Origin: a virus
Taxonomy: Duplodnaviria; Caudoviricetes
Strand: one strand, 5' to 3'
Length of the DNA stretch: 55,126 nt
IMG/VR virus record: IMGVR_UViG_3300048672_000495
Location: 1 to 55,126 of that record
The stretch's first letter is position 1, and the number at the start of each line of letters is the position of its first letter. Under the pieces are notes generated by a model. That model saw only the letters and a program-made list of their open reading frames with translations. It was not told the origin of the DNA and searched no databases. The position numbers were made by a program, and so were the translations under genes. This document shows positions 10,617 to 24,047 of this stretch, piece after piece.

Positions 10617-10858
10617 AATCCTGCCAAAATTGCATTTATTTTAAGTTAGATGTTGCATCTAAGTACTATGGTGGATATGCACCTAGTCCGCATATTTGTA
10701 TGCATGAAGCTGCTAGATATATTTCACAAAGTATTATTTATGAAGAAGTGTTAAACTATACTTGTGAAGGTATGCGTCAAAAACACGGCGATTGTGGACC
10801 AGAAGCAAAACTATTTAAACCAAAACTTTTTTATAAACTAAAAACCCTATTATCATGA
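10613..10858 (+). CDS. Cys-rich hypothetical protein
   Basis: CQNC..C..C..R..CGPEAKLF pattern; ATGA coupling. Confidence 0.65.
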   Translation: MKSCQNCIYFKLDVASKYYGGYAPSPHICMHEAARYISQSIIYEEVLNYTCEGMRQKHGDCGPEAKLFKPKLFYKLKTLLS

Positions 10859-11628
10859 GAATCCTACTTTATAGTGATCTCCATACTGAATTTTGGAGAA
10901 AAGAAGCCGAATTGAAGCCCCTGCTTCAGCTTGGCAAGGCTTGTGTAACCGACTCTGTGCGTTGCGACGTTGTTGTGCTCGCAGGAGATATCGCGTCTGG
11001 TCGTACCAATACTAAGAAAGTTCTGAAGCAGTTTGCCAATGCATATGCACACGTTGTGTATGTGCCAGGTAATCACGAATATTATGGTTCTGATATTGCT
11101 ACTTTTGATGATATTGGTGAACTTCCTAGTAACGTTTACCTTCTTAATCCGGGTAAAATGAGTATTAGTGACCGTGATGGTGATATTGTTACCTTCATTG
11201 GGGCTACTCTGTGGACTAATTTTCATTATGATGTAGTTGCTGAAATGGCAGCCAAGGATATGATTACTGACTTTAGGCTTATTAAAAACTTTAAGCCTAC
11301 TCACGCAATTGAACTGTATCGTAAACATATCGACTACATTAAGCATATGTATGAAACCACTCCTGGTAAAAAGGTAATTGTTACCCACTTCCTTCCAGCC
11401 TATGAATGCATTTCTAGAAGGTTTAGGGATGGTAATCTACTTAATAAGTATTTTGCTAACGAACTAGATAACTGGATTGCTAATCTAAGCAATACTACTT
11501 GGCTATTTGGCCATACTCATGATTCTATGGATCTCACTCTAGGTGATACTCGTCTAGTATGTAATCCGTATGGATATATGGGTAGTGAAACTAACCGTGA
11601 ATTTACTGATAAGGTAATTGTTGTATGA
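10855..11628 (+). CDS. calcineurin-like metallophosphoesterase
   Basis: SDLH, AGDI, PGNHEYY, VTHFLP, FGHTH, NPYGY. Confidence 0.9.
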   Translation: MRILLYSDLHTEFWRKEAELKPLLQLGKACVTDSVRCDVVVLAGDIASGRTNTKKVLKQFANAYAHVVYVPGNHEYYGSDIATFDDIGELPSNVYLLNPGKMSISDRDGDIVTFIGATLWTNFHYDVVAEMAAKDMITDFRLIKNFKPTHAIELYRKHIDYIKHMYETTPGKKVIVTHFLPAYECISRRFRDGNLLNKYFANELDNWIANLSNTTWLFGHTHDSMDLTLGDTRLVCNPYGYMGSETNREFTDKVIVV

Positions 11629-14790: not shown

Positions 14791-15082
14791 CTTATTCAAA
14801 ACGAAACCAGAAGAAAAAAAAGAAATTGTAACAGGTCCCCCTACAAGTATTACACCTGCACCAAAACTACCTGAGCCCCCAATGTGGACAGTCGGGCCAT
14901 CAAATGATGGTACACAAATAGTGTTGTGTATACAGCATGATTGTACAATCATTAGGATGTATATGAATGCAGAGGCTACGGAATCGTTGATTCAATCGCT
15001 TGATTCCCTTCTTCAGCCGATGTTGACCGTATTGCAAAAAAATTCGGTTTTAGAGCCATTTCCAACGATCGAAACAGCATGA
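14783..15082 (+). CDS. hypothetical protein
   Basis: 99-aa ORF overlapping neighbours. Confidence 0.6.
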   Translation: MFNLFKTKPEEKKEIVTGPPTSITPAPKLPEPPMWTVGPSNDGTQIVLCIQHDCTIIRMYMNAEATESLIQSLDSLLQPMLTVLQKNSVLEPFPTIETA

Positions 15083-15378
15083 AGTACGATAATGAAACTA
15101 CCAAGAAATTAGTTGCTGATTACGCCTCAGGCGTGTCAGTTGCGCTCCTTGCGGAGCAATTAGACGTCCCTGAGCGCTCTATAATTGCCAAACTGGCCTC
15201 ACTTGGTGTATACAAGAAGAAGGAATACCTTAATAAACAGGGTGAACCGCCCATAAAAAAGGAAGAATACGTCGAGCGTATTGCAAATTTGCTAAAAGTC
15301 AATGTAGAACTACTAGAATCTCTTGAAAAGGTCAATAAAAACGTCTTAAAGATGCTAGAAGACGCATTAACTTCCTAA
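15079..15378 (+). CDS. T5 A2/D3-like DNA-binding protein
   Basis: RSIIAKLASLGVY..LESLEK; paralog of 16999-17310 and 18110-18502. Confidence 0.7.
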   Translation: MKYDNETTKKLVADYASGVSVALLAEQLDVPERSIIAKLASLGVYKKKEYLNKQGEPPIKKEEYVERIANLLKVNVELLESLEKVNKNVLKMLEDALTS

Positions 15379-15383
15379 AACTC

Positions 15384-15420
15384 AAAAAGCCTCGTAATAT
15401 CACTATTACGAGGCTTTTTT
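15384..15420 (+). terminator. intrinsic (bidirectional) terminator
   Basis: AAAAAGCCTCGTAATA-TCAC-TATTACGAGGCTTTTT. Confidence 0.85.
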
Positions 15421-15621
15421 GCGTCGGAAGTCAACTGTGACTATTTTTTCATTCAAAACAGCCCAACCACAATAATTATGACCCAACCGCGCTAATTGCT
15501 TGCCGGAGGCAAGAGGCTGCGCCGCTTGGGGCGATTCGCTAAATTCTCACTTGACAAATCTGCTCAGCACTGGTAAAATTTGGCGCCGAAACAGACTTGT
15601 TACATTTTGTTACAATTGAGC

Positions 15622-15660
15622 AAAAACTAAACCCCCAGAATCCGAAGATTAAGGGGGTTA
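15622..15660 (-). terminator. intrinsic terminator ending the large ncRNA unit
   Basis: minus: AACCCCC..AATC TTCG GATT..GGGGGTT TAGTTTTT. Confidence 0.65.
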
Positions 15661-16508
15661 GAAGTATGACTAGTACTTTTTATATAGATATCTTGAGTCG
15701 TCGAAACTCTCAATCTCCACTGTTTTTTAAGAGCTGGGACTCTGCCAGGTTTATGCTCGGTAGCCGAGCACCAGCCGTATCGCGTCGTACTGGGTTTCTT
15801 TGTGTGGTAAGAGCTACTTACCTACACGTATGTGTTCCTAAGTTGGTACCATAAAGGGTTCGAGACCGCGTACTAGGTAACACAATATAACAACGTCTCC
15901 CGACGTTGGCTGGATCATGTTGGGTTGCCTCTGCATCCACGATCTGATCCGCAACAAGCTCGATAGCACTCCAAAGCTATCGCATTTAAGTCCAATTCGG
16001 GCAGGATTCCATCCTGGGGTGGACACTAAATAAACCGACTCTCACGGTATTCTAGATCTAAGTTTCGCTTGATGGCCCTTGCATGCTAGTCTGCGGCACT
16101 CGCTACACCAGTCTATATAAGGAGCTGCTCGACTGGTATCTGCGCTGCTCGCTAATCTTATAATTCGTCTTGGATTTGATTAAGATCCAATGTAACGTCT
16201 ACACTTATATTAACCTCCGGGCCGCATGTAGACGCCTCCCAGATTCTGCCTTTCGTTGTTGTGAGACTATTTTGCGATCTTCCCACTACTACTCGCAGCC
16301 GCTTATATGCCGGGCCAGATCAGACATCCTGGTTTAAGTCCTTATGTCAGAGACTACCAACTTAAGTTTTGGCAAACTAACTATACGGATGACACCAGAA
16401 TAGTCATAGGAGAGTAATCTCTTTAGGTAACAGGCACGCAAATGCTTTCGACCTTATTAGACACCTACGGTCAGGAGACTCAGAGAAATCAGACTCATCT
16501 GACTAATC
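15660..16508 (-). ncRNA. large (~850 nt) structured non-coding RNA candidate
   Basis: No credible ORF; many hairpins (TTGGAT..ATCCAA, ACCAGTC..GACTGGT, CAGGAT-GGA-ATCCTG, CGATAGC..GCTATCG, TGCTCGG-CTA-CCGAGCA, GGTAAG..CTTACC) and AGTA/GAA motifs. Confidence 0.55.
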
Positions 16509-16559
16509 TACGACTGACCGTTTCGACCGAATTGCACGGTCTCATCAGGATGCTTTAAT
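16502..16559 (-). ncRNA. type I hammerhead ribozyme
   Basis: minus: ATC-CTGATGA-GACCG tgcaatt CGGTC-GAAA-CGG tcag TCG-TA^GAT; full core, stems II and III, GUA cleavage triplet (cut 16509/16508); stem I short or bulged. Confidence 0.75.
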
Positions 16560-16634
16560 TGGTACCCCTTATGGGTTTCGATCCCATCTGCACAACGTGA
16601 AAGGCTGTTGACCTCGCCAGAAGTCCAAAGGGGC
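16560..16634 (-). tRNA. trnE: tRNA-Glu(UUC)
   Basis: GCCCCTT/AAGGGGT acceptor, loop CTTTCAC, T loop ATCGAAA, ACCA end. Confidence 0.88.
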
Positions 16635-16734
16635 ATAAATAGGGGATGGCTGTCGACCTGGTATAATTTTCACGACACTTAGTTCATCTATTCCCAACCA
16701 TGTATGGGAACCAAAGAGCACCATCTGGAAAATT

Positions 16735-16806
16735 GTAGTATAAGCTCGCCGTCTACTCACGCTGCCTCTGCTTGACGTCCCTTTACAAGGTAACGTGTTA
16801 TACTAC
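16735..16806 (-). ncRNA. stem-closed small RNA candidate
   Basis: GTAGTATAA / TTATACTAC 9-bp terminal stem, first element after promoter. Confidence 0.4.
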
Positions 16807-16844
16807 GCGCCGGTGATTCCGGTCTTTCTCTCACTTCAACATCT

Positions 16845-16967
16845 ATTATACATGAAAAGGGGATGCGAATCAAGACAATATTTATTGATCTGAATCGCTG
16901 CTTTTCTTCTTGTCGCTAATTCCCCAGTCCATATACATATTATACATGAAAGGAGCCCCAGGATCAA
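16845..16967 (-). promoter_or_regulatory. two tandem sigma70-type promoters
   Basis: TTGATT-17-TATAAT (~16845-16873) and TTGATC-17-TATAAT (~16939-16967), sharing TTTCATGTATAAT. Confidence 0.8.
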
Positions 16968-16998
16968 GTGAGAATTTTTGATCCTAGGCTCCGCACCG

Positions 16999-17310
16999 TC
17001 AGGCTTCGAGAGCCTTCAGGACGAACATCAGAGCCGGACCCGTGGCCTTTTCCAGCGACTCCACCTGTTCTTCGGACGCGCCGACCGCCTTGGCGATCTT
17101 GGCAACCATTTCCGCCTTCAGCATCTCACGCTTGCCGGCTTCCTTGGCCTTGGGGACGTACACACCTTCCTTCGACAGCTTGGCGATCACCGAGCGTGCC
17201 GACTTGCCCAGCTTGACAGCCAGAGCTTCCACAGCCACACCAGCTTGATAGCCGGCAACCAGTTCCGCAACCTGTTCGGCGGAATAATTCGCAACCTTTT
17301 CAGCAGACAT
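16999..17310 (-). CDS. T5 A2-like DNA-binding protein
   Basis: NYS..LGKSARSVIAKLSKEGVY..ESLEKA; GGAGAG RBS; promoter TTGAGG-17-TATAAT upstream. Confidence 0.75.
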   Translation of the reverse strand: MSAEKVANYSAEQVAELVAGYQAGVAVEALAVKLGKSARSVIAKLSKEGVYVPKAKEAGKREMLKAEMVAKIAKAVGASEEQVESLEKATGPALMFVLKALEA

Positions 17311-17559
17311 TTTCTCTCTCCTATGTTAATGGGTTAATTTATTCGGATTGTTCTGCGATCCGATAAAGAATTATAAATCGTTTGGATAAAAGCCTCAAGT
17401 GAATATTTTTTAATGTATACTCGTGGCTCAACATTTTTTGGATACAAACGCGCACGTTAAAACTTATGCGGGCCGGCTGCCTACGCAGCGTTGGGTTATG
17501 CTTGATCTCCCAATCCATTTCATTATTATACGCGGGAAATTTCAAAAATTCAAGAAAAT

Positions 17560-18110
17560 TATTTCCGACCTTACGACTAATTGGGGTCAGGCTCAGAAAA
17601 ATTCACTTGACAGCGCGTGGTCGCGCGAGTATAATGGGCGCGGCCAAATTATACCGCTTTACCACTGGCGCAGAACGCACTAAGTGTATTTTTTGTAGCA
17701 CTACCACTGGCGCAGCGCACTGCTTTTTTTCGACGTGAGCGCTCACTAACGTCCAAATGTGTGTAAGTGCTTACATTGAATGCGAGTGAGAATGATTCGC
17801 GTTCAGGGCCCGAATTGTAGCCTATGTAACAGATTGTAAAAGTCATTGACACACCCCAATTTTATGTGATAAAATTGGCGCGCCCGAAGTGAGTGCTCAC
17901 TTCGCTACCGGGCAAAACAAAAACCGCGGCCGCGGTTTTTGAAAGTGAGTACCTGCTATGCGCAGGGATGCCAACCTAGCGGCTACCGATGGCGTCGGGT
18001 CACGGCCGCGTTTCTCGCTTTTTTGTCAATAGGGATTTACCCTATACCCGCCGCGATGACTTTATGCACGCATTGCGGGATTTAATCAATAGGGGTTTCC
18101 CCCTATTGAT
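17560..18110. repeat. palindrome/direct-repeat-rich non-coding block (injection-stop-signal-like)
   Basis: TACCACTGGCGCAG x2, CGAAGTGAGTGCTCACTTCG, AAAACCGCGGCCGCGGTTTT, ATCAATAGGGG..CCCCTATTGAT. Confidence 0.55.
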
Positions 18111-18502
18111 TATTCGCCTACCGGGGCGACTTCGCCAGCCCTTTCCTCGCCATTTTCCAGCGGTTTGCTGTTGGCGAGCGCCGTGAAAATTTTCACCAGA
18201 GCGGTTTTGTTCGCCTTTGTGAGCGATTCCGTTTCCGATTCGGTCAACTTCAAAACCGCGCCGATCGCATCGGCGTGCGCGTCTTTCTTGACCGGCTTTT
18301 CGCCGTTCTTGCTGACATACGCCTTCGCCTTGTATACGCCTTCTTTCGTGAGCTTGGCGATCACGCTGCGAGCAGTCTTGCCGATGGCAACAGCCATCTT
18401 TTCGACGTTTTCCTTACTCGCGTCGGCAGCGTAGCCCGCGAGAATGGTTGCGGTTTGCGCATCGGTGTAATTCGGTGCCTTGACAGTCTTTTCGGTAGCC
18501 AT
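18110..18502 (-). CDS. T5 A2-like DNA-binding protein
   Basis: NYT..IGKTARSVIAKLTKEGVY..ESLTKA. Confidence 0.75.
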   Translation of the reverse strand: MATEKTVKAPNYTDAQTATILAGYAADASKENVEKMAVAIGKTARSVIAKLTKEGVYKAKAYVSKNGEKPVKKDAHADAIGAVLKLTESETESLTKANKTALVKIFTALANSKPLENGEERAGEVAPVGE

Positions 18503-18625
18503 TTTTTGCCCTTTCGTGGCAGTTGTGAAGTGAAGTAGAGACTATACCGGAATCCGAAAACCTTGTCAACTGTGGGGTTATTTCCCGTTGTTGCGTTGCG
18601 TTTGGTTTCTTGATCCGATAAGTAG

Positions 18626-18842
18626 ATTATGAGGCATGGCAGGCCAGCGCGCAAGTGTTATTACAAACTGTTACAATTGCATTTTCCTACCATATGCCCG
18701 CGTGCATGTCAAGCAGTATTACAAACTGTTACAATTGCCCGGCCTGGGGCCTGTTACATCTTGTTACAAAAAACCGCTTGACGCGGGCCAAAATTATATG
18801 ATATAATTTTGGCGCCCGAAGTTAGTGAGTACTCACTAACTT
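18626..18842. promoter_or_regulatory. repeated pre-early regulatory cassette (representative copy)
   Basis: minus promoter(s) + TTACAAACTGTTACA boxes + plus TTGACG-18-TATAAT within palindrome + GGCGC + AAGTTAGTGAGTACTCACTAACTT; related cassettes at ~17825, 20503, 21739, 22627, 23377. Confidence 0.75.
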
Positions 18843-18880
18843 AGTATATAAAATAATATGGGGCATATTGCCCCATATTA

Positions 18881-19234
18881 TTAAACTATAACCCAGTATC
18901 TGTCGAGTAGATACCGCGCCCACGGTTTGAATTGTGTTTTCTCACCGTGGCCGAATCTATACCCATTTTCGTGCTGCCAGATATGGATATATTCGTGAAA
19001 CAAACACCCGAGCATTTTCTCCAGAGTATCCGAATACTGTTCAGATACTAGAATAACGTGAGTTTTTTTGTTCTTGCCGAGATACCCCGGATAATGGTAT
19101 AATGCTGCACATTCGTCACCATCCTGGTATATATGTTTCACGCGGAAAACATATACCGGCAATTTTACGTCGAATATCGAATCCATTAGCGGACCATATG
19201 GATTCGATATTCTTTGCATTTTGTTATTTGGCAC
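18881..19234 (-). CDS. SprT-like HEXXH metalloprotease
   Basis: LFHEYIHIWQ..GHG..F. Confidence 0.65.
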   Translation of the reverse strand: MPNNKMQRISNPYGPLMDSIFDVKLPVYVFRVKHIYQDGDECAALYHYPGYLGKNKKTHVILVSEQYSDTLEKMLGCLFHEYIHIWQHENGYRFGHGEKTQFKPWARYLLDRYWVIV

Positions 19235-19922
19235 AGAAATGATCCTTTACTTGAAAAGATTTCCAGTTATATGCAATTGTTTTTTCTTGCCAATTGCGTT
19301 TCTTGAGAATATGCACCAGAGTCGGCAATTCATATCCGATAATATCCTCAATTGAAGTATGCGGTTCGTCAGTCATACTACCAGTGAGAAACCCAGTAAC
19401 TGCTTCGGCAGTTGTCGAATATGTCATATTACCGAATTTCGTGCGAGCATTGAACAAATGATTGTCAATGGCAAACTGTCGATATGCCTTAGTTTGACAG
19501 ATATTGCCAACGGCCGCGCCCCATAAACAAAACCGATTTGAAAACATATTCAAATCAATTTGAGTATTTGCACATTTACTCGCATCAAATGCGAGATTAT
19601 ATGCCGTAAGTGTCGGGTTATACTTACCCGCTGCTTTTTCCAGCCAACGATTTACTGCGTTTGCGCTTGCGAGCATACGCGAACCCGCTGTTAGCATCGC
19701 ATTATAAGAATCCATGCGTGCAGACACGTTCGCAGCAGACCAGATACCCGGCGCATTCTTATCGTAAAAAAGCGAGTCAACACCAAAAACAGATTGAACC
19801 AAAACCGCACATTGTGCGGCAATGTTTCCATGCCTATCGCAGACAACCGCGCCAAAATCCGCGACCTTATCCGTGATTGACGTTTCAGTGTCAACGATTA
19901 GGAAAAACTGTTTTTTTGCCAT
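19224..19922 (-). CDS. DEDDh 3'-5' exonuclease
   Basis: IVDTET (ExoI), AYNLAFD (ExoII), HTSIED (ExoIII). Confidence 0.8.
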   Translation of the reverse strand: MAKKQFFLIVDTETSITDKVADFGAVVCDRHGNIAAQCAVLVQSVFGVDSLFYDKNAPGIWSAANVSARMDSYNAMLTAGSRMLASANAVNRWLEKAAGKYNPTLTAYNLAFDASKCANTQIDLNMFSNRFCLWGAAVGNICQTKAYRQFAIDNHLFNARTKFGNMTYSTTAEAVTGFLTGSMTDEPHTSIEDIIGYELPTLVHILKKRNWQEKTIAYNWKSFQVKDHFCAK

Positions 19923-19988
19923 TGTGCGCCTTAGTGGGTGAGCATTGATTATATAGGAAAAACCAGTTGCGTGACTAGGTGTTTACCC

Positions 19989-20465
19989 TTAGTGACCTTG
20001 CACGCTAGGGACATATACCCCGCTGATTTTGAACCTATCACAAACCGCTTTCAGATACTGCACATTATCTTCGTAAAATACTGCGCGAGCGGCCCGAAAC
20101 TGTTTCAAATTGAAGAATTTAATCAACCCGCGAATTTTCAATTTCGCACCGCTGATATTCTCGCCGGGTTTGCGCGAGATTAGATAATCTGGTTTGCCGA
20201 GAATCTCATTTACATATTGCCAGTCTGCCGCGCCCATTTGCCGCGCAGTCGCAATAATAACATAACATTCAGGGTCTGCAATATCTGCCTTATATTGTTG
20301 CGCGAGCGGCAATAACTTATCAAGCATTGCCAGTTTTTCATTTTCTCGCCAATATGGCAAGTCGATTCGTTCGACATTATCCGCACCCATTATTGTGCGG
20401 TATCTATGTGAACTATCAACGATAGTACCGTCCATATCGTAAATAGATACTCTGCGAATTGCCAT
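19989..20465 (-). CDS. dmp: HAD-family deoxynucleoside-5'-monophosphatase, T5 Dmp-like
   Basis: RVSIYDMDGTIVDSSHR..LLPL..IIATAR..FYEDN; start moved to ATG 20465 with AAGGA RBS. Confidence 0.75.
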   Translation of the reverse strand: MAIRRVSIYDMDGTIVDSSHRYRTIMGADNVERIDLPYWRENEKLAMLDKLLPLAQQYKADIADPECYVIIATARQMGAADWQYVNEILGKPDYLISRKPGENISGAKLKIRGLIKFFNLKQFRAARAVFYEDNVQYLKAVCDRFKISGVYVPSVQGH

Positions 20466-20978
20466 TATATTATCCTTTGGTTGATTCGTTTCTGACCCTT
20501 TGAATATACGCTTACCCGCGCAGTGTGTCAATCAGTTTTACAAACTGTTACAATTTCGGCGCGCATAGATTTGGCTAATTGTCAAGTGTTATTACAAACT
20601 GTTACACGGGCCATACTTTGCACCGTTACAAACTGTTACAATAAAGTGCTTGACGCGGCCCAATTTTATGTGATAAAATTGGCGCAAATGTAAGTTAGTG
20701 CTAACTAACTTACGTGATATTAAATAATAAGTAGGAAACAAACCCACGTTATTATTATAAGAATATCACCTATTCGAGTTTGCCCTTCGATGCAAAATGT
20801 TGCGGTACGGGTAATTGGTATTCTCAAATACCATTTACGATACTCAAAAAGGTTTTTCATATGATAATGATTTCCTCAACGCGAACAACCCGCCACCTAT
20901 ATTTTGCATATACTGCGGCCCGAGATTCTGCGAATACCATAATCGCAGTACCATTTTCCAATGCGACGTTAAATAATC

Positions 20979-21266
20979 TCATATTTGCCTCGCAGTGAAT
21001 TTGATTTGAATTTCAGTATCATTACGTTCCCAGATTTTATATCTGAGCATAATAACCAGAAACGCAAGATTTGCCAAATAATTTACCGACAGCGGCAAAT
21101 TACCCATTGGCAAAACGTAAATCAGTGTAAAAACTTCGCCACCAAGCCAGCATAGCAGATATGCCCAATTCAGCCCGCGTGCGTGACCATCACGCGCACA
21201 TTGAATAGCCTGAGGAAAACCGCAAATGCTGAAAAGCATTGAACCAATCCAACCGATAGTTTCCAT
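20979..21266 (-). CDS. PQ-loop/SemiSWEET-like membrane protein
   Basis: 3 TM helices, GFPQAIQ motif, conserved N in TM3. Confidence 0.7.
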   Translation of the reverse strand: METIGWIGSMLFSICGFPQAIQCARDGHARGLNWAYLLCWLGGEVFTLIYVLPMGNLPLSVNYLANLAFLVIMLRYKIWERNDTEIQIKFTARQI

Positions 21267-21698
21267 TTATGCCTCCAATGCGCGCCGAAAAATAATTTCT
21301 TGGTTTGCGAATGCTTGCAATTCCCATGGTTGATTCATATATGGGGTTTTGCGTGGATATTTTACACCATTCCAGATACGCGAGCCATTCTTTGTGTCTG
21401 ACAATTTGCCAGTCGCAAATTGTTTGACATGCGTCAATTCGTGCGCTAGTGACAGCCCGAATTTTTCGAGTGTCATGCCTTTCTTCAGCGAGACAACGAA
21501 CGAACCCGCGAATAGTTCCTGCGCTAATCCCTCGTTTTCCTGTTTCGATACCGTGACAAGCACGAATCCTGCGCGCTTTGACAAATTCAATTGCGCGAGC
21601 ATTGATGGCATGAGCGCATCAAGCCATGTCGCAATGCGCCTGCTTTTCGTGTCGATCAGATATTCCATGCCTAGAGCATACCACGCCACGGTGAACAA
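21267..21698 (-). CDS. HEXXH zinc metallopeptidase
   Basis: LAHELTHVKQF..PYMNQPWELQAF; true start may be ATG 21668. Confidence 0.75.
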   Translation of the reverse strand: MFTVAWYALGMEYLIDTKSRRIATWLDALMPSMLAQLNLSKRAGFVLVTVSKQENEGLAQELFAGSFVVSLKKGMTLEKFGLSLAHELTHVKQFATGKLSDTKNGSRIWNGVKYPRKTPYMNQPWELQAFANQEIIFRRALEA

Positions 21699-21941
21699 TT
21701 TCCTAGGTGTTTACCCTAGTGTGGCAAATTCAGCACGCTTACAAACTGTTACAATAAATCGCTTGACGCACCCCATTTTACTATGGTAAAATGGCGCAAA
21801 TGTTACAAACTTGTAACAGTTTGTAACATCGCTTGACTTATTGCCAACGATTAGGGTCACCGCATATCCAAATGCACCCGACTAGAGTGCACCCCATGAG
21901 AATCAATCCACCAAGACCCACGACAGTGATCAAAAAATCCA

Positions 21942-22322
21942 TTATCTACCTTTCTTTGCGCGCGCAATGCGCATTGCCGACGTTGTGAGAGAATGACAGC
22001 GCGAGGGTTCCAGCCCATAGGCCAGCATCACGCTTTTCCAATGGTAGCCGTGACCGTTATCACGGTACACATCCCACGCTACCATGTGAGCGATTTCATG
22101 TGGAATAATGTCTTGTTTGTATGCTTCGACATTTTCCGCAAACATGACAGGGGCAAGCTCAACAATGCGAGCGTCAAGATTGCAGCGGCCTGCAGTGGTC
22201 TTGAGTCTGCGGTTTAGCTGAATCACGGGCATCGTGTTTTTCAGTGTGAACAGTTGCCCAAAGCGCTGCCAAATTTTGGAGCGCTCGCATTCTGCGATCA
22301 GTTGAAGTGTTTTTTCGTCCAT
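21942..22322 (-). CDS. SprT-family metalloprotease
   Basis: RLKTTAGRC..IPHEIAH..HGYHWKSVM..G..PSRCH. Confidence 0.85.
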   Translation of the reverse strand: MDEKTLQLIAECERSKIWQRFGQLFTLKNTMPVIQLNRRLKTTAGRCNLDARIVELAPVMFAENVEAYKQDIIPHEIAHMVAWDVYRDNGHGYHWKSVMLAYGLEPSRCHSLTTSAMRIARAKKGR

Positions 22323-22331
22323 GACAGGATT

Positions 22332-22550
22332 CTAGCACATCGGCTGACAGAAACGATCCCACATTTCTTGCCCATCGACTTCGTACAAACCCGCATACGG
22401 GCCGAGTTCATCTGAGAGAAATTCGCAGTATTCCTCATCTGTCAAACCAGCGCACAGCAGGTTTTGCAGTTCAGTGACTTCGCCGATTGGCAGGCGTTCG
22501 CAATCCTCGCCAATCATGTCGCAGCGTTGGGGGCCGAGGTCAATTGTCAT
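22332..22550 (-). CDS. hypothetical acidic protein
   Basis: ATG 22550 with GGAGA RBS. Confidence 0.55.
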   Translation of the reverse strand: MTIDLGPQRCDMIGEDCERLPIGEVTELQNLLCAGLTDEEYCEFLSDELGPYAGLYEVDGQEMWDRFCQPMC

Positions 22551-22794
22551 AGTCGTTTCTCCAGTTGACGCATTCATTCTATAGCATCCAGCCAACAATA
22601 ACATAGGTGTTTACCCTAGTGTTGTTTTACAAATTGTTACACGTGCAGCTATTGACACGTCCCAATTATACGTGGTATAATTGGCGCCAATTGTAACAGT
22701 TTGTAACAGTGCTTGACAAAACAAAACCCGCCTAAGCGGGTTTTGAACGTAAGCGGGTCGGAAATTCGCGCCCGCTCAGGCCGTAATTCTCAGC

Positions 22795-22971
22795 CTATAC
22801 GTTTTTATTTGTTAATTCGCACCAATGCCCACGCCACGAGCATTGCAACGGCAGAGGCGCACGCGCAGCGCGGTTCGCATCCTGAGCGCGCTTCTGTGCG
22901 CGAGTGTCGCGAGCAGGCAGTGGGGCGAGGTTCAGGGTAGCACGGATTTCGTTGATACGGGCAAGGTTCAT
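22795..22971 (-). CDS. small basic hypothetical protein (58 aa)
   Basis: hand-translated MNLARINEIRATLNL...; GGAGA RBS, -10 TATAAT at 22998-23003. Confidence 0.5.
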   Translation of the reverse strand: MNLARINEIRATLNLAPLPARDTRAQKRAQDANRAARAPLPLQCSWRGHWCELTNKNV

Positions 22972-23032
22972 TTCGTTTCTCCGGTGTGTGAGTCTGAATT
23001 ATAGCGCACCGATCACGATGCGCTATAGGTGT

Positions 23033-23338
23033 TTACCCTTGATTGTACAAATTCGCGAAGCTTTGCGCGAAGTAGTCGAAATTGTCAGACGTGCAAGGCA
23101 CGGGCACATCACAGCGGCGAATCGCTTGCGATGCGCCGATGAGTCTGTCGAATTTCGGTTCACTTGGCGATTGCCATGCGATGCCCATGCATGCCCATTG
23201 CGAACCCGCAAAGTTTTCGATCAGGGCAATGGTCAGGCCAATGTCACGAAAGAAAAACAGTTCGCCGCCTGCGCTCATAAAGTCATTGCGCATCTCGGTA
23301 TTGTATTTGCGTTGGCCCGCAGTCATCTTCGTTGTCAT
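23033..23338 (-). CDS. hypothetical protein
   Basis: ATG 23338 after ACGAAAGGGCAAA leader, also found before 18502. Confidence 0.65.
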   Translation of the reverse strand: MTTKMTAGQRKYNTEMRNDFMSAGGELFFFRDIGLTIALIENFAGSQWACMGIAWQSPSEPKFDRLIGASQAIRRCDVPVPCTSDNFDYFAQSFANLYNQG

Positions 23339-23514
23339 GGTTTGCCCTTTCGTGGCAGTGGTTGATTGACAATGTAAGTATAGGGCATGGAATAGCACAT
23401 GCAAGCACCTTTACAAACAGTTACAAAGAGTTACAATAAATATGTTGACGCGGGCCTATGCGCTGTGGTAAAATAGGCGCAAATGTAAGTTAGTGCTAAC
23501 TAACTTACATCGTA

Positions 23515-23784
23515 TTAGGGACCGGGGTAGTCTGTGCCGCTAGTGTCTGCAATGACTACCAGATGCGGGACATACTTATGATTACGCCTTGCAAACTCCC
23601 TATTCATAGCGGCGACTGCTTCTTCTGCTGTGTCATAAGCGGCAAGTCTAGAGCCTATGCCACCATGCATTGACGCACGGCTCATGTCAACGAAACGCAC
23701 ATCACGCCAGCCAAAAAATCCATGCTGTTGCATGATGTAGCGCGATCCCTCGCGCGTGATGATGCGAAAATGTTTCAGTTTCAT
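23515..23784 (-). CDS. hypothetical protein
   Basis: ATG 23784, GAGGG RBS, ATGA coupling. Confidence 0.55.
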   Translation of the reverse strand: MKLKHFRIITREGSRYIMQQHGFFGWRDVRFVDMSRASMHGGIGSRLAAYDTAEEAVAAMNREFARRNHKYVPHLVVIADTSGTDYPGP

Positions 23785-24047
23785 TGCTTGTGCCCTCGTT
23801 TGTAAGAAACATGCCCCCACACATCGCGCACGGGCACCGTGAATTGCAGTTTGCAATCCAGTGTCGTGATGGTGATGCTGCTTGTGTCGCGTGACAGTTC
23901 AGTAAGGTCGCGCACGCTGCAATACGCACCACGCTTGCCAGCCCAGATTGAAAAATCTTCACCGTTCAGCCATGCTGTACGCATTGCGTCAACGTCGGCA
24001 TAGTGTTTGCCGGGGGCAGGGATTAGAACAAGTGGTGTTGCAAACAT
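23781..24047 (-). CDS. hypothetical protein (first pre-early gene)
   Basis: GAGGA RBS, promoter TTGTAC-16-TAGAAT upstream. Confidence 0.6.
   Translation of the reverse strand: MFATPLVLIPAPGKHYADVDAMRTAWLNGEDFSIWAGKRGAYCSVRDLTELSRDTSSITITTLDCKLQFTVPVRDVWGHVSYKRGHKQ

Follow-up and report, generated by a model that had tools for sequence, protein, structure and literature searches.

The window analyzed here is the whole of IMG/VR virus record IMGVR_UViG_3300048672_000495, a stretch of 55,126 bases with an estimated completeness of 52%. Its minus strand carries, in 5′ to 3′ order, a tRNA-Glu gene with anticodon UUC and an encoded CCA (16560..16634, identified by ARAGORN), the A/U-rich linker AUUAAA between this CCA and the next element (16554..16559), a type I hammerhead ribozyme (16461..16553), and a region of ~840 nucleotides (nt) that probably encodes a large non-coding RNA, the predicted 3′ cleavage product of the ribozyme (15625..16465). 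The hammerhead was identified by a covariance model of its family, by constrained folding, and by covariation among relatives, and the non-coding RNA by the absence of open reading frames (ORFs) of ≥90 amino acids (aa), by its fold score, and by synteny. An earlier note on this DNA had placed a hammerhead between the tRNA and a downstream large RNA, with the core beginning 11 nt past the tRNA. This order was borne out: the tRNA ends at 16560, the core motif CUGAUGA starts at 16548, exactly 11 nt beyond the CCA, and the ribozyme is followed by a long non-coding stretch.

Fold and predicted cleavage site of the hammerhead

Read along the minus strand, the ribozyme starts with the 5′ strand of stem I, GCAUC (16553-16549 in the long-stem-III register), followed by the core CUGAUGA (16548-16542), a stem II of 5 base pairs (bp), GACCG/CGGUC, capped by the loop UGCAAUU (16541-16525), and GAA (16524-16522). 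The 5′ strand of stem III, ACGGUCAG (16521-16514), forms 8 bp with the 3′ strand, CUGACCGU (16474-16467), and the two are separated by an insert of 39 nt that is itself a hairpin in the long-stem-III fold (16513-16475). A17 (16466) and the 3′ strand of stem I, GGUGU (16465-16461), which pairs with GCAUC, complete the element. The core, the 5-bp stem II with its UGCAAUU loop, and the GAA are thus present as the earlier note had read them. All conserved core positions were found (C3-A9, G12-A14, A15.1-U16.1, C15.2-G16.2, H17 = A, and G10.1-C11.1), with the A15.1-U16.1 pair formed by A16521 and U16467. The topology is that of type I, in which stems II (16541-16525) and III (16521-16467) are closed by hairpins and stem I is open, its strands coming from both ends of the element.

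We searched the window with a type I descriptor that combined the core with a stem II of ≥4 bp, a stem III of ≥4 bp, and a stem I of ≥3 bp. In its relaxed form, the descriptor found a single core, that at 16548-16542, in two registers. Descriptor matches occurred in 2 of 300 dinucleotide shuffles, indicating that the hammerhead lies beyond chance expectation. One of the possible registers is that proposed in the earlier note, with a short stem III, ACGG[UCAG]UCGU, and a 3-bp stem I, AUC/GAU, that can be extended as AUUA/UAGU past a bulge, AAGC; cleavage would then fall at 16509/16508. The short stem III, the GUA at 16511-16509, and the AUC/GAU pairs do exist in the sequence, but the fold that they would build was not the one supported. 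The unconstrained minimum-energy fold of 16565-16440 (−34.7 kcal/mol) approximated the long-stem-III structure, and when the core was forced to be single-stranded, the long-stem-III fold reached −34.5 kcal/mol, compared with −19.6 kcal/mol for the short-stem fold.

A covariance model built from 43 relatives, with the window left out, gave a single full-length match in the window, at 16556-16458 on the minus strand (52.9 bits; E = 1.4e-14, a rough value since calibration was short). The model aligned the window with a long stem III and placed A16466 at position 17. Together, the long-stem register of the relatives, the covariance model, and the folding energies place the predicted self-cleavage site, GUA^G, after A16466 (16465..16466), 43 nt downstream of the site proposed before. 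They also replace the 3-bp stem I by the 5-bp pairing GCAUC/GGUGU and the short hairpin by the 8-bp stem III with its insert, and they extend the hammerhead to ~16458, outside the interval 16502-16634 previously assigned to it.

A subfamily of related hammerheads supported by covariation

A search with the protein encoded upstream of the locus (16999-17310) returned 46 distant loci. In two of these, identical in sequence, a hammerhead begins 5 nt after a tRNA-Glu; its stem II differs from that of the window yet is still complementary, its loop, UGCAAGU, is of the same kind, and its stem III forms over a long range with 9 bp. An exact pattern, in which the core and loop II were fixed and the four inner stem II positions on each side were left free, matched 31 stretches in viral contigs, 23 in representative genomes, and at least 120 in metagenome contigs. 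Pooled with the window, these gave at least 176 matches, of which 10 lacked a complete hammerhead by the criteria used (5 of them cut by the contig end). Among the matches listed, to which all counts of members given here and below refer, the subfamily comprises at least 131 unique hammerheads, 90 with a stem III of ≥50 nt (50-100 nt) and 41 with a short stem III. The loop II sequence UGCAAKU is common to all members because the search pattern required it.

Stem II offered an unbiased test of the fold, since the pattern had not demanded pairing at its free positions. In the first 25 unique sequences, all four free positions were paired in 25 of 25 cases, with three to four pair types at each position. 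For the whole structure, 75 relatives with a stem III of 54-66 nt were reduced to 43, one for each distinct combination of stems II and III and without the window. Within this set, in which the 3′ ends of stems III and I had been placed by a script that maximizes pairing, 92.9% of the cells of the three-stem structure were paired and 14 of the 18 pairs showed double changes. The observed covariation was reached by 0 of 500 column shuffles, a count that is not a probability because the family sequences are related, and sliding the registers by 1-3 columns lowered pairing to at most 46.5%. Without a given structure, RNAalifold arrived at these three stems too, with 3 bp in stem I, 5 bp in stem II, and 8 bp in stem III. 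U-G pairs were frequent, occurring in 33 of 43 relatives at one stem III position, which ties the structure to the minus strand of the window.

The motif ACGGUCAGUC...CUGAYCGU A^ is common to the window and its closest hammerheads (L261, L266, L309, L339, and L243). Stem I of these relatives covaries with that of the window, reading ACGUA/UACGU as against GCAUC/GGUGU. In four of them, a tRNA-Glu ends 11-12 nt before the core, and in L243, it lies 65 nt before.

Association of the ribozyme with tRNA genes

In 20 of the 90 long-stem-III members, ARAGORN placed the end of a tRNA at most 15 nt upstream of CUGAUGA. Eighteen of these tRNAs were Glu(UUC) and two were Tyr(GUA), and the CCA was encoded in all that were inspected. 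Thirteen further members had a tRNA-Glu 16-200 nt upstream, two had too little upstream sequence to judge, and 55 had no ARAGORN tRNA within 200 nt. Among the 41 short-stem-III members, which include chromosomal ones of Legionella, a tRNA within 200 nt was found in none (39 had none, and 2 had too little upstream sequence). The pattern in the two groups indicates that the association is specific to the long-stem-III subfamily and is not obligatory.

In members without a tRNA, the ribozyme usually comes after a folded leader, of which a few kinds recur. The most frequent kind begins immediately after a −10-like box and consists of GGGYGUUAUGAG, a hairpin, GAUAACAACUUGAUG, a second hairpin, and an end reading ...CGCCCACCA or a variant of it. 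It was found ~80 nt before the hammerhead in L168, L172, L174, L182, L189, L192, L196, and many metagenome loci. By eye, the closing pairs and the NCCA-like end of this leader look acceptor-like. Type I hammerheads unrelated to the subfamily were also seen in viral contigs 2-15 nt after tRNA-Asp, tRNA-Pro, or tRNA-Arg genes of phages (L098, L086, L037, L053, L039, and L056), in a scan that required TCGAA upstream and was thereby biased towards tRNAs. In L056, a tRNA-Tyr starts exactly at the predicted cut, where the ribozyme would make the 5′ end of the tRNA.

The tRNA-Glu(UUC) of the window forms a regular cloverleaf with an atypical G1-U72 pair, U14, and A54 (T-loop AUCGAAA). By blastn, it is 73-80% identical to the tRNAs-Glu of the related contigs L258, L261, and L264. 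Relative to L258, compensatory changes were seen by eye in the acceptor, anticodon, and T stems; the T-loop is common to L261 and the D-loop to both L261 and L258. The Rfam tRNA model reported four of the six ARAGORN tRNAs of the window and did not report the tRNA-Glu at 16560-16634, even in a 271-base search with E up to 10. In the minimum-energy fold, AUUA of the linker can pair with UAAU at 16459-16456, an extension that is not conserved in the relatives. An A/U-rich linker after the CCA is also present in the nearest relatives of the window.

The downstream RNA

In the region 15378-16978 of the window, no ORF of ≥90 aa was found. The 846-nt stretch from the predicted cut to the terminator folded better than 20 of 20 shuffles (z = −4.36), and the G+C content of the large-RNA region was 0.475, compared with ~0.35-0.40 in most of the window. 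Searches with Rfam assigned no family to the downstream RNA of the window, nor to those of 12 relatives at gathering thresholds, nor to those of 3 relatives at E up to 1.

The relatives share a gene order in which a DNA-binding-type gene is followed by a tRNA or leader, the hammerhead, a non-coding stretch, and a terminator, and then by a conserved promoter on the opposite strand, a second terminator, and a convergent paralogue of the DNA-binding-type gene. The downstream RNA of the window is syntenic with the conserved non-coding RNAs found at this place. Among the 89 other long-stem-III members, 33 showed a CUUUUGUUUU terminator tail 248-922 nt after the cut; many other contigs end sooner.

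The downstream RNA of the main family (L168, L170, L172, L174, L177, L181, and others) is conserved at the nucleotide level and modular, with repeated CGACCCUAAGUCGUUAAAAG-like hairpins and a strong terminator at its end. When RNAalifold was applied to 12 of these RNAs, 35 pairs were predicted, 13 of them with compensatory changes, and a long-range helix was predicted between GACCCUAA and UUAGGGUC. Protein coding was considered for this region and rejected: translated matches among the relatives appeared in all six frames and shifted frame between loci, with the convergent flanking gene as the exception.

Of 60 long-stem-III relatives, 13 (e.g., L181, L191, and L192) have a second site, UUUAGGGUC^AGG, that is fully compatible with the core and lies 238-649 nt past the cut. 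That a single core serves this second, distal cut was also considered and rejected: stem III of each of the 13 contains the consensus UUAGGGU, and the members in which stem III is a variant, such as CUGUGGGU or CUGAGGGU, all lack the site. As there is no covariation between the distal site and the ribozyme, this site probably belongs to the fold of the large RNA itself. In the window, a search for a second copy of the substrate strand gave 6 matches with up to 3 mismatches, compared with 6.1 expected, and the sole exact match was the ribozyme itself.

Genomic setting

The window encodes a terminase, portal, major head protein, and major tail protein of a tailed phage on its plus strand, together with a tape-measure-sized ORF of 2,309 aa. 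The minus strand carries small early-type genes and the six tRNAs identified by ARAGORN. A blastn search of 15380-16900 against GenBank phage records found nothing similar.

A candidate sigma-70-like promoter (TTGATT, 17 nt, TATAAT; 10 of 12 consensus matches) lies on the minus strand at 16845..16873 and would start a transcript ~200 nt ahead of the tRNA-Glu. On the same strand, a scan identified an intrinsic-terminator-like hairpin with a U-run at 15630..15650, the place occupied by GGGGCUUUUGUUUUG terminators in the relatives; it would end a transcript containing the tRNA, the hammerhead, and the large RNA. Just past this terminator, a near-consensus sigma-70-like promoter on the plus strand (15551..15579; TTGACA, 17 nt, TAAAAT, with TG; 11 of 12 matches) points back into the large RNA. 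This promoter block is among the few blocks conserved with the relatives, and the promoter could drive an antisense transcript. An 85-aa ORF that follows it (15597-15854) had no PHROG match.

Upstream, the RNA locus is flanked by a gene for a 103-aa DNA-binding-type protein (16999..17310, minus strand; PHROG 1725, E = 9.5e-07), with homologues in 85 of 174 family loci. On the other side lies a convergent gene for a paralogous 99-aa protein (15079..15378, plus strand; PHROG 1725, E = 1.1e-05), with homologues in 84 of the 174. Two paralogous small DNA-binding-type proteins of PHROG 1725 thus bracket the RNA locus in inverted orientation. A 130-aa ORF (18110-18502, minus strand) gave tblastn matches in nearly the same loci as the flanking genes (84-86 of 174). 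Over 16001-24000 of the window, the G+C content was 0.43-0.50, as compared with 0.33-0.41 elsewhere, and long ORFs were sparse between 17.3 and 19.2 kb; this region may contain further non-coding RNA.

A gene at 19989-20531 on the minus strand, 3.4 kb from the locus, bears the PHROG label "polynucleotide kinase" and has homologues in 17 of 174 family loci. Pfam and NCBIfam gave no match to support this label, and the best match among solved structures was a HAD-type hydrolase (E = 0.4). Since the label is not confirmed and the loci are kin, we did not count the recurrence of this gene as evidence. Two calcineurin-like metallophosphoesterases are encoded elsewhere in the phage (6605-7438, minus strand; 10855-11628, plus strand). 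Together with the gene labeled as a kinase, whose label is not confirmed, they would make a possible RNA end-healing set.

Discussion

Hammerhead cleavage leaves a 2′,3′-cyclic phosphate on the upstream product and a 5′-OH on the downstream product. In the arrangement that we propose, a single minus-strand transcript would start from the promoter near 16845 and run through a leader of ~200 nt, the tRNA-Glu(UUC), the hammerhead, and the ~840-nt RNA to the terminator at 15650-15630. The hammerhead would fold with its 5-bp stem I, its 5-bp stem II capped by UGCAAUU, and its long, rod-like stem III, and would cut itself after A16466. The upstream product would then consist of the leader and tRNA-Glu with the folded ribozyme as a trailer of 94 nt ending in a 2′,3′-cyclic phosphate; nearly the whole ribozyme would stay on this product because it is of type I. 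The downstream product would be the large RNA, starting with a 5′-OH at G16465. That the large RNA is split from the tRNA and acquires a 5′-OH end would follow from hammerhead chemistry and the order of the genes. Because the ribozyme is kept as a 3′ trailer, it cannot by itself make the 3′ end of the tRNA, and host nucleases would still be needed to strip the trailer. In the window and its nearest relatives, a host endonuclease could finish the tRNA through the A/U-rich linker.

We consider it quite likely, on the sequence comparisons, that the element is a genuine hammerhead that cuts at 16466/16465, between the tRNA and the large RNA. Several observations weigh against this reading or against the role that we assign to the ribozyme. 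The Rfam model Hammerhead_1 (RF00163) scores the window at 22.8 bits, below its gathering score of 34, and its match uses a third register with non-standard pairs; this model has 45 positions, without room for the 39-nt insert of stem III, and it gave no match at E up to 1 in the relatives L170, L182, and L196. Two of the five pairs of stem I are G-U. No covarying partner that could provide a tertiary contact for loop II was seen on inspection of the alignments of relatives, and a search by eye for a loop II pseudoknot with the stem III insert or the 3′ tail found no consistent partner. The cut lies 94 nt past the CCA, so that the ribozyme does not mature the tRNA, and the majority of long-stem-III relatives (55 of 90) have no tRNA nearby. 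The promoter at 16845..16873 and the terminator at 15630..15650 are consensus matches only. A search of public sequencing runs for the locus found no RNA run that contains it and listed only two runs, each with a small share of it, in the form of contigs, which do not show RNA ends. For the body of the large RNA of the window, no homologue was detected by an nhmmer profile of 13 main-family RNAs, which found nothing credible (best E = 3.9), or by sensitive blastn against all 174 family loci, whose matches were confined to the flanking genes, the tRNA, the terminator/promoter block, and the hammerhead. The case for a functional large RNA comes from synteny, the absence of ORFs, the raised G+C content, and a fold z-score based on only 20 shuffles. 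Finally, because the members belong to related phages, their shared layout partly reflects shared ancestry.

The low Rfam score and the two G-U pairs in stem I are what a decayed or chance hammerhead-like motif, no longer active, would also show. The core is intact, though, the match to the family model and the strong covariation in 43 relatives speak against it, and the descriptor matched few shuffles, so that we regard this explanation as the most improbable of those considered. That the short-stem fold of the earlier note is the active one, with its stem I extended across the AAGC bulge and its cut at 16509/16508, is hardly less improbable. Its pairs pass the relaxed descriptor with stems of 3, 5, and 4 bp, and short-stem-III hammerheads of type I do occur in nature, for example, the Legionella-type members. 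The folding energies are nevertheless against it, the family covariance model puts the window in the long register, and the five closest relatives read ACGGUCAGUCAAG in place of the short hairpin. Since ACGGUCAGUCAAG provides no U16.1 and makes position 17 a G, the short-stem fold is barred in all five.

A different question is which product the cleavage would serve. The hammerhead might act in tRNA production, freeing a precursor for host 3′ nucleases and leaving the downstream RNA as a by-product or spacer. The tRNA-Glu(UUC), or rarely tRNA-Tyr, that stands within 15 nt of the ribozyme in 20 of 90 long-stem-III members, with its CCA encoded, fits this idea, as does the linker after the CCA, which could be an endonuclease site. 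Against it, a folded 94-nt trailer with a cyclic phosphate would be a poor start for 3′ trimming, the relatives that lack a tRNA keep the ribozyme and the downstream RNA, and the main-family downstream RNA is conserved and shows the compensatory changes described above. We therefore consider a role in tRNA production unlikely. With the tRNA so often absent, it is the downstream RNA, and not the tRNA, to which the ribozyme is tied, and since the downstream RNA persists throughout, the main job of the ribozyme should concern the large RNA. Among functional readings, we lean modestly toward the view that the ribozyme mainly serves to define the 5′ end of the large RNA exactly and to detach this RNA from the upstream part of the transcript.

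A broader interpretation, which we offer tentatively and would not yet back over its alternatives, is that a tRNA or CCA-ended leader fold, a hammerhead, and a large RNA form a conserved phage cassette. The hammerhead would then release a new class of large structured RNA with a precise 5′-OH. The released RNA would measure 250-920 nt in the relatives and ~840 nt in the window, and it would possibly join GOLLD and ROOL as the third ornate phage RNA linked to tRNAs. Phage end-healing enzymes might act on its 5′-OH end.

Hammerheads between prophage genes, for which processing of long phage transcripts was proposed, have been described before (Perreault et al. 2011, PMC3088659, as far as its accessible text goes). 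The hammerhead of the window shares with the phage and prophage type I hammerheads of RF00163 reported there the catalytic core, the three-stem junction, the open stem I, and the intergenic phage context. It differs in its long stem III (50-100 nt in 90 of 131 members), in belonging to a subfamily with a conserved UGCAAKU loop on a 5-bp stem II, in its stem I, which has 5 bp in the window and 3 bp in most relatives, and in its score below the Rfam gathering threshold. Its position also differs: it follows directly on a tRNA and precedes a large non-coding RNA instead of lying between protein genes. The accessible text of PMC3088659 makes no mention of a link to tRNAs, and its supplementary alignments may already hold members of the subfamily. 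The same text reports hammerheads upstream of ardA in Legionella, and these have the same exact pattern, CUGAUGAG, with a 5-bp stem II, the loop UGCAAYU, and CGAAAC. Consistent with this, 20 of the 23 genome matches to our pattern were in Legionella species (L199-L220) and were type I hammerheads whose short stem III consists of a 3-bp hairpin closed by a tetraloop. These matches may be a clue to the hosts in which the wider ribozyme subclass occurs and say nothing firm about the host of this phage.

In ribozymes like that of hepatitis delta virus (HDV), cleavage takes place at the 5′ edge of the ribozyme itself, so that the 3′ end of a tRNA can be freed. The predicted cut of the hammerhead lies at its 3′ edge, 94 nt past the CCA, which is the opposite geometry. 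HDV-like ribozymes beside phage tRNAs have been reported as theta ribozymes (Kienbeck et al. 2024, PMC10879173); the title and abstract of that paper agree with the statement of the earlier note that these tRNA-associated ribozymes are HDV-like, and the word "hammerhead" occurs 0 times in its accessible text. Both kinds are small and self-cleaving as a class and sit directly 3′ of a phage tRNA gene. The ribozyme of the window has a hammerhead fold, unlike theta ribozymes, and no HDV-type Rfam match was found in 15000-17200 at E up to 10. In a further difference, its tRNA is an ordinary Glu(UUC) tRNA and not a suppressor.

GOLLD and ROOL are large phage and prophage RNAs, often located beside tRNAs and possibly co-transcribed with them, according to the accessible text of Weinberg et al. 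(2017, PMC5737381). The candidate RNA of the window is likewise large, non-coding, and adjacent to a tRNA. The Rfam models of GOLLD and ROOL had no match in the window or in 12 relatives, and the accessible text of PMC5737381 describes no ribozyme at the 5′ end of either RNA. In the literature considered, we came across no description of a hammerhead immediately 3′ to a phage tRNA or at the head of a large phage RNA, with the reservation that supplementary alignments may hold members.

A known ribozyme class is thus found here in an unreported, conserved architectural and genomic setting. As the subfamily falls under the curated Rfam threshold, its members have probably been missed in routine annotation. 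The purpose of bacterial and phage hammerheads is still largely open, and the locus offers a clean and recurrent natural setting in which to address it, with one ribozyme standing at the same junction, from tRNA to large non-coding RNA, in more than 100 related sequences. Compared with theta ribozymes, it suggests that phages pair their tRNAs with a second ribozyme class besides the HDV-like one, in an arrangement in which it is the downstream RNA that would receive a clean end, and it points to an uncharacterized family of large phage RNAs.

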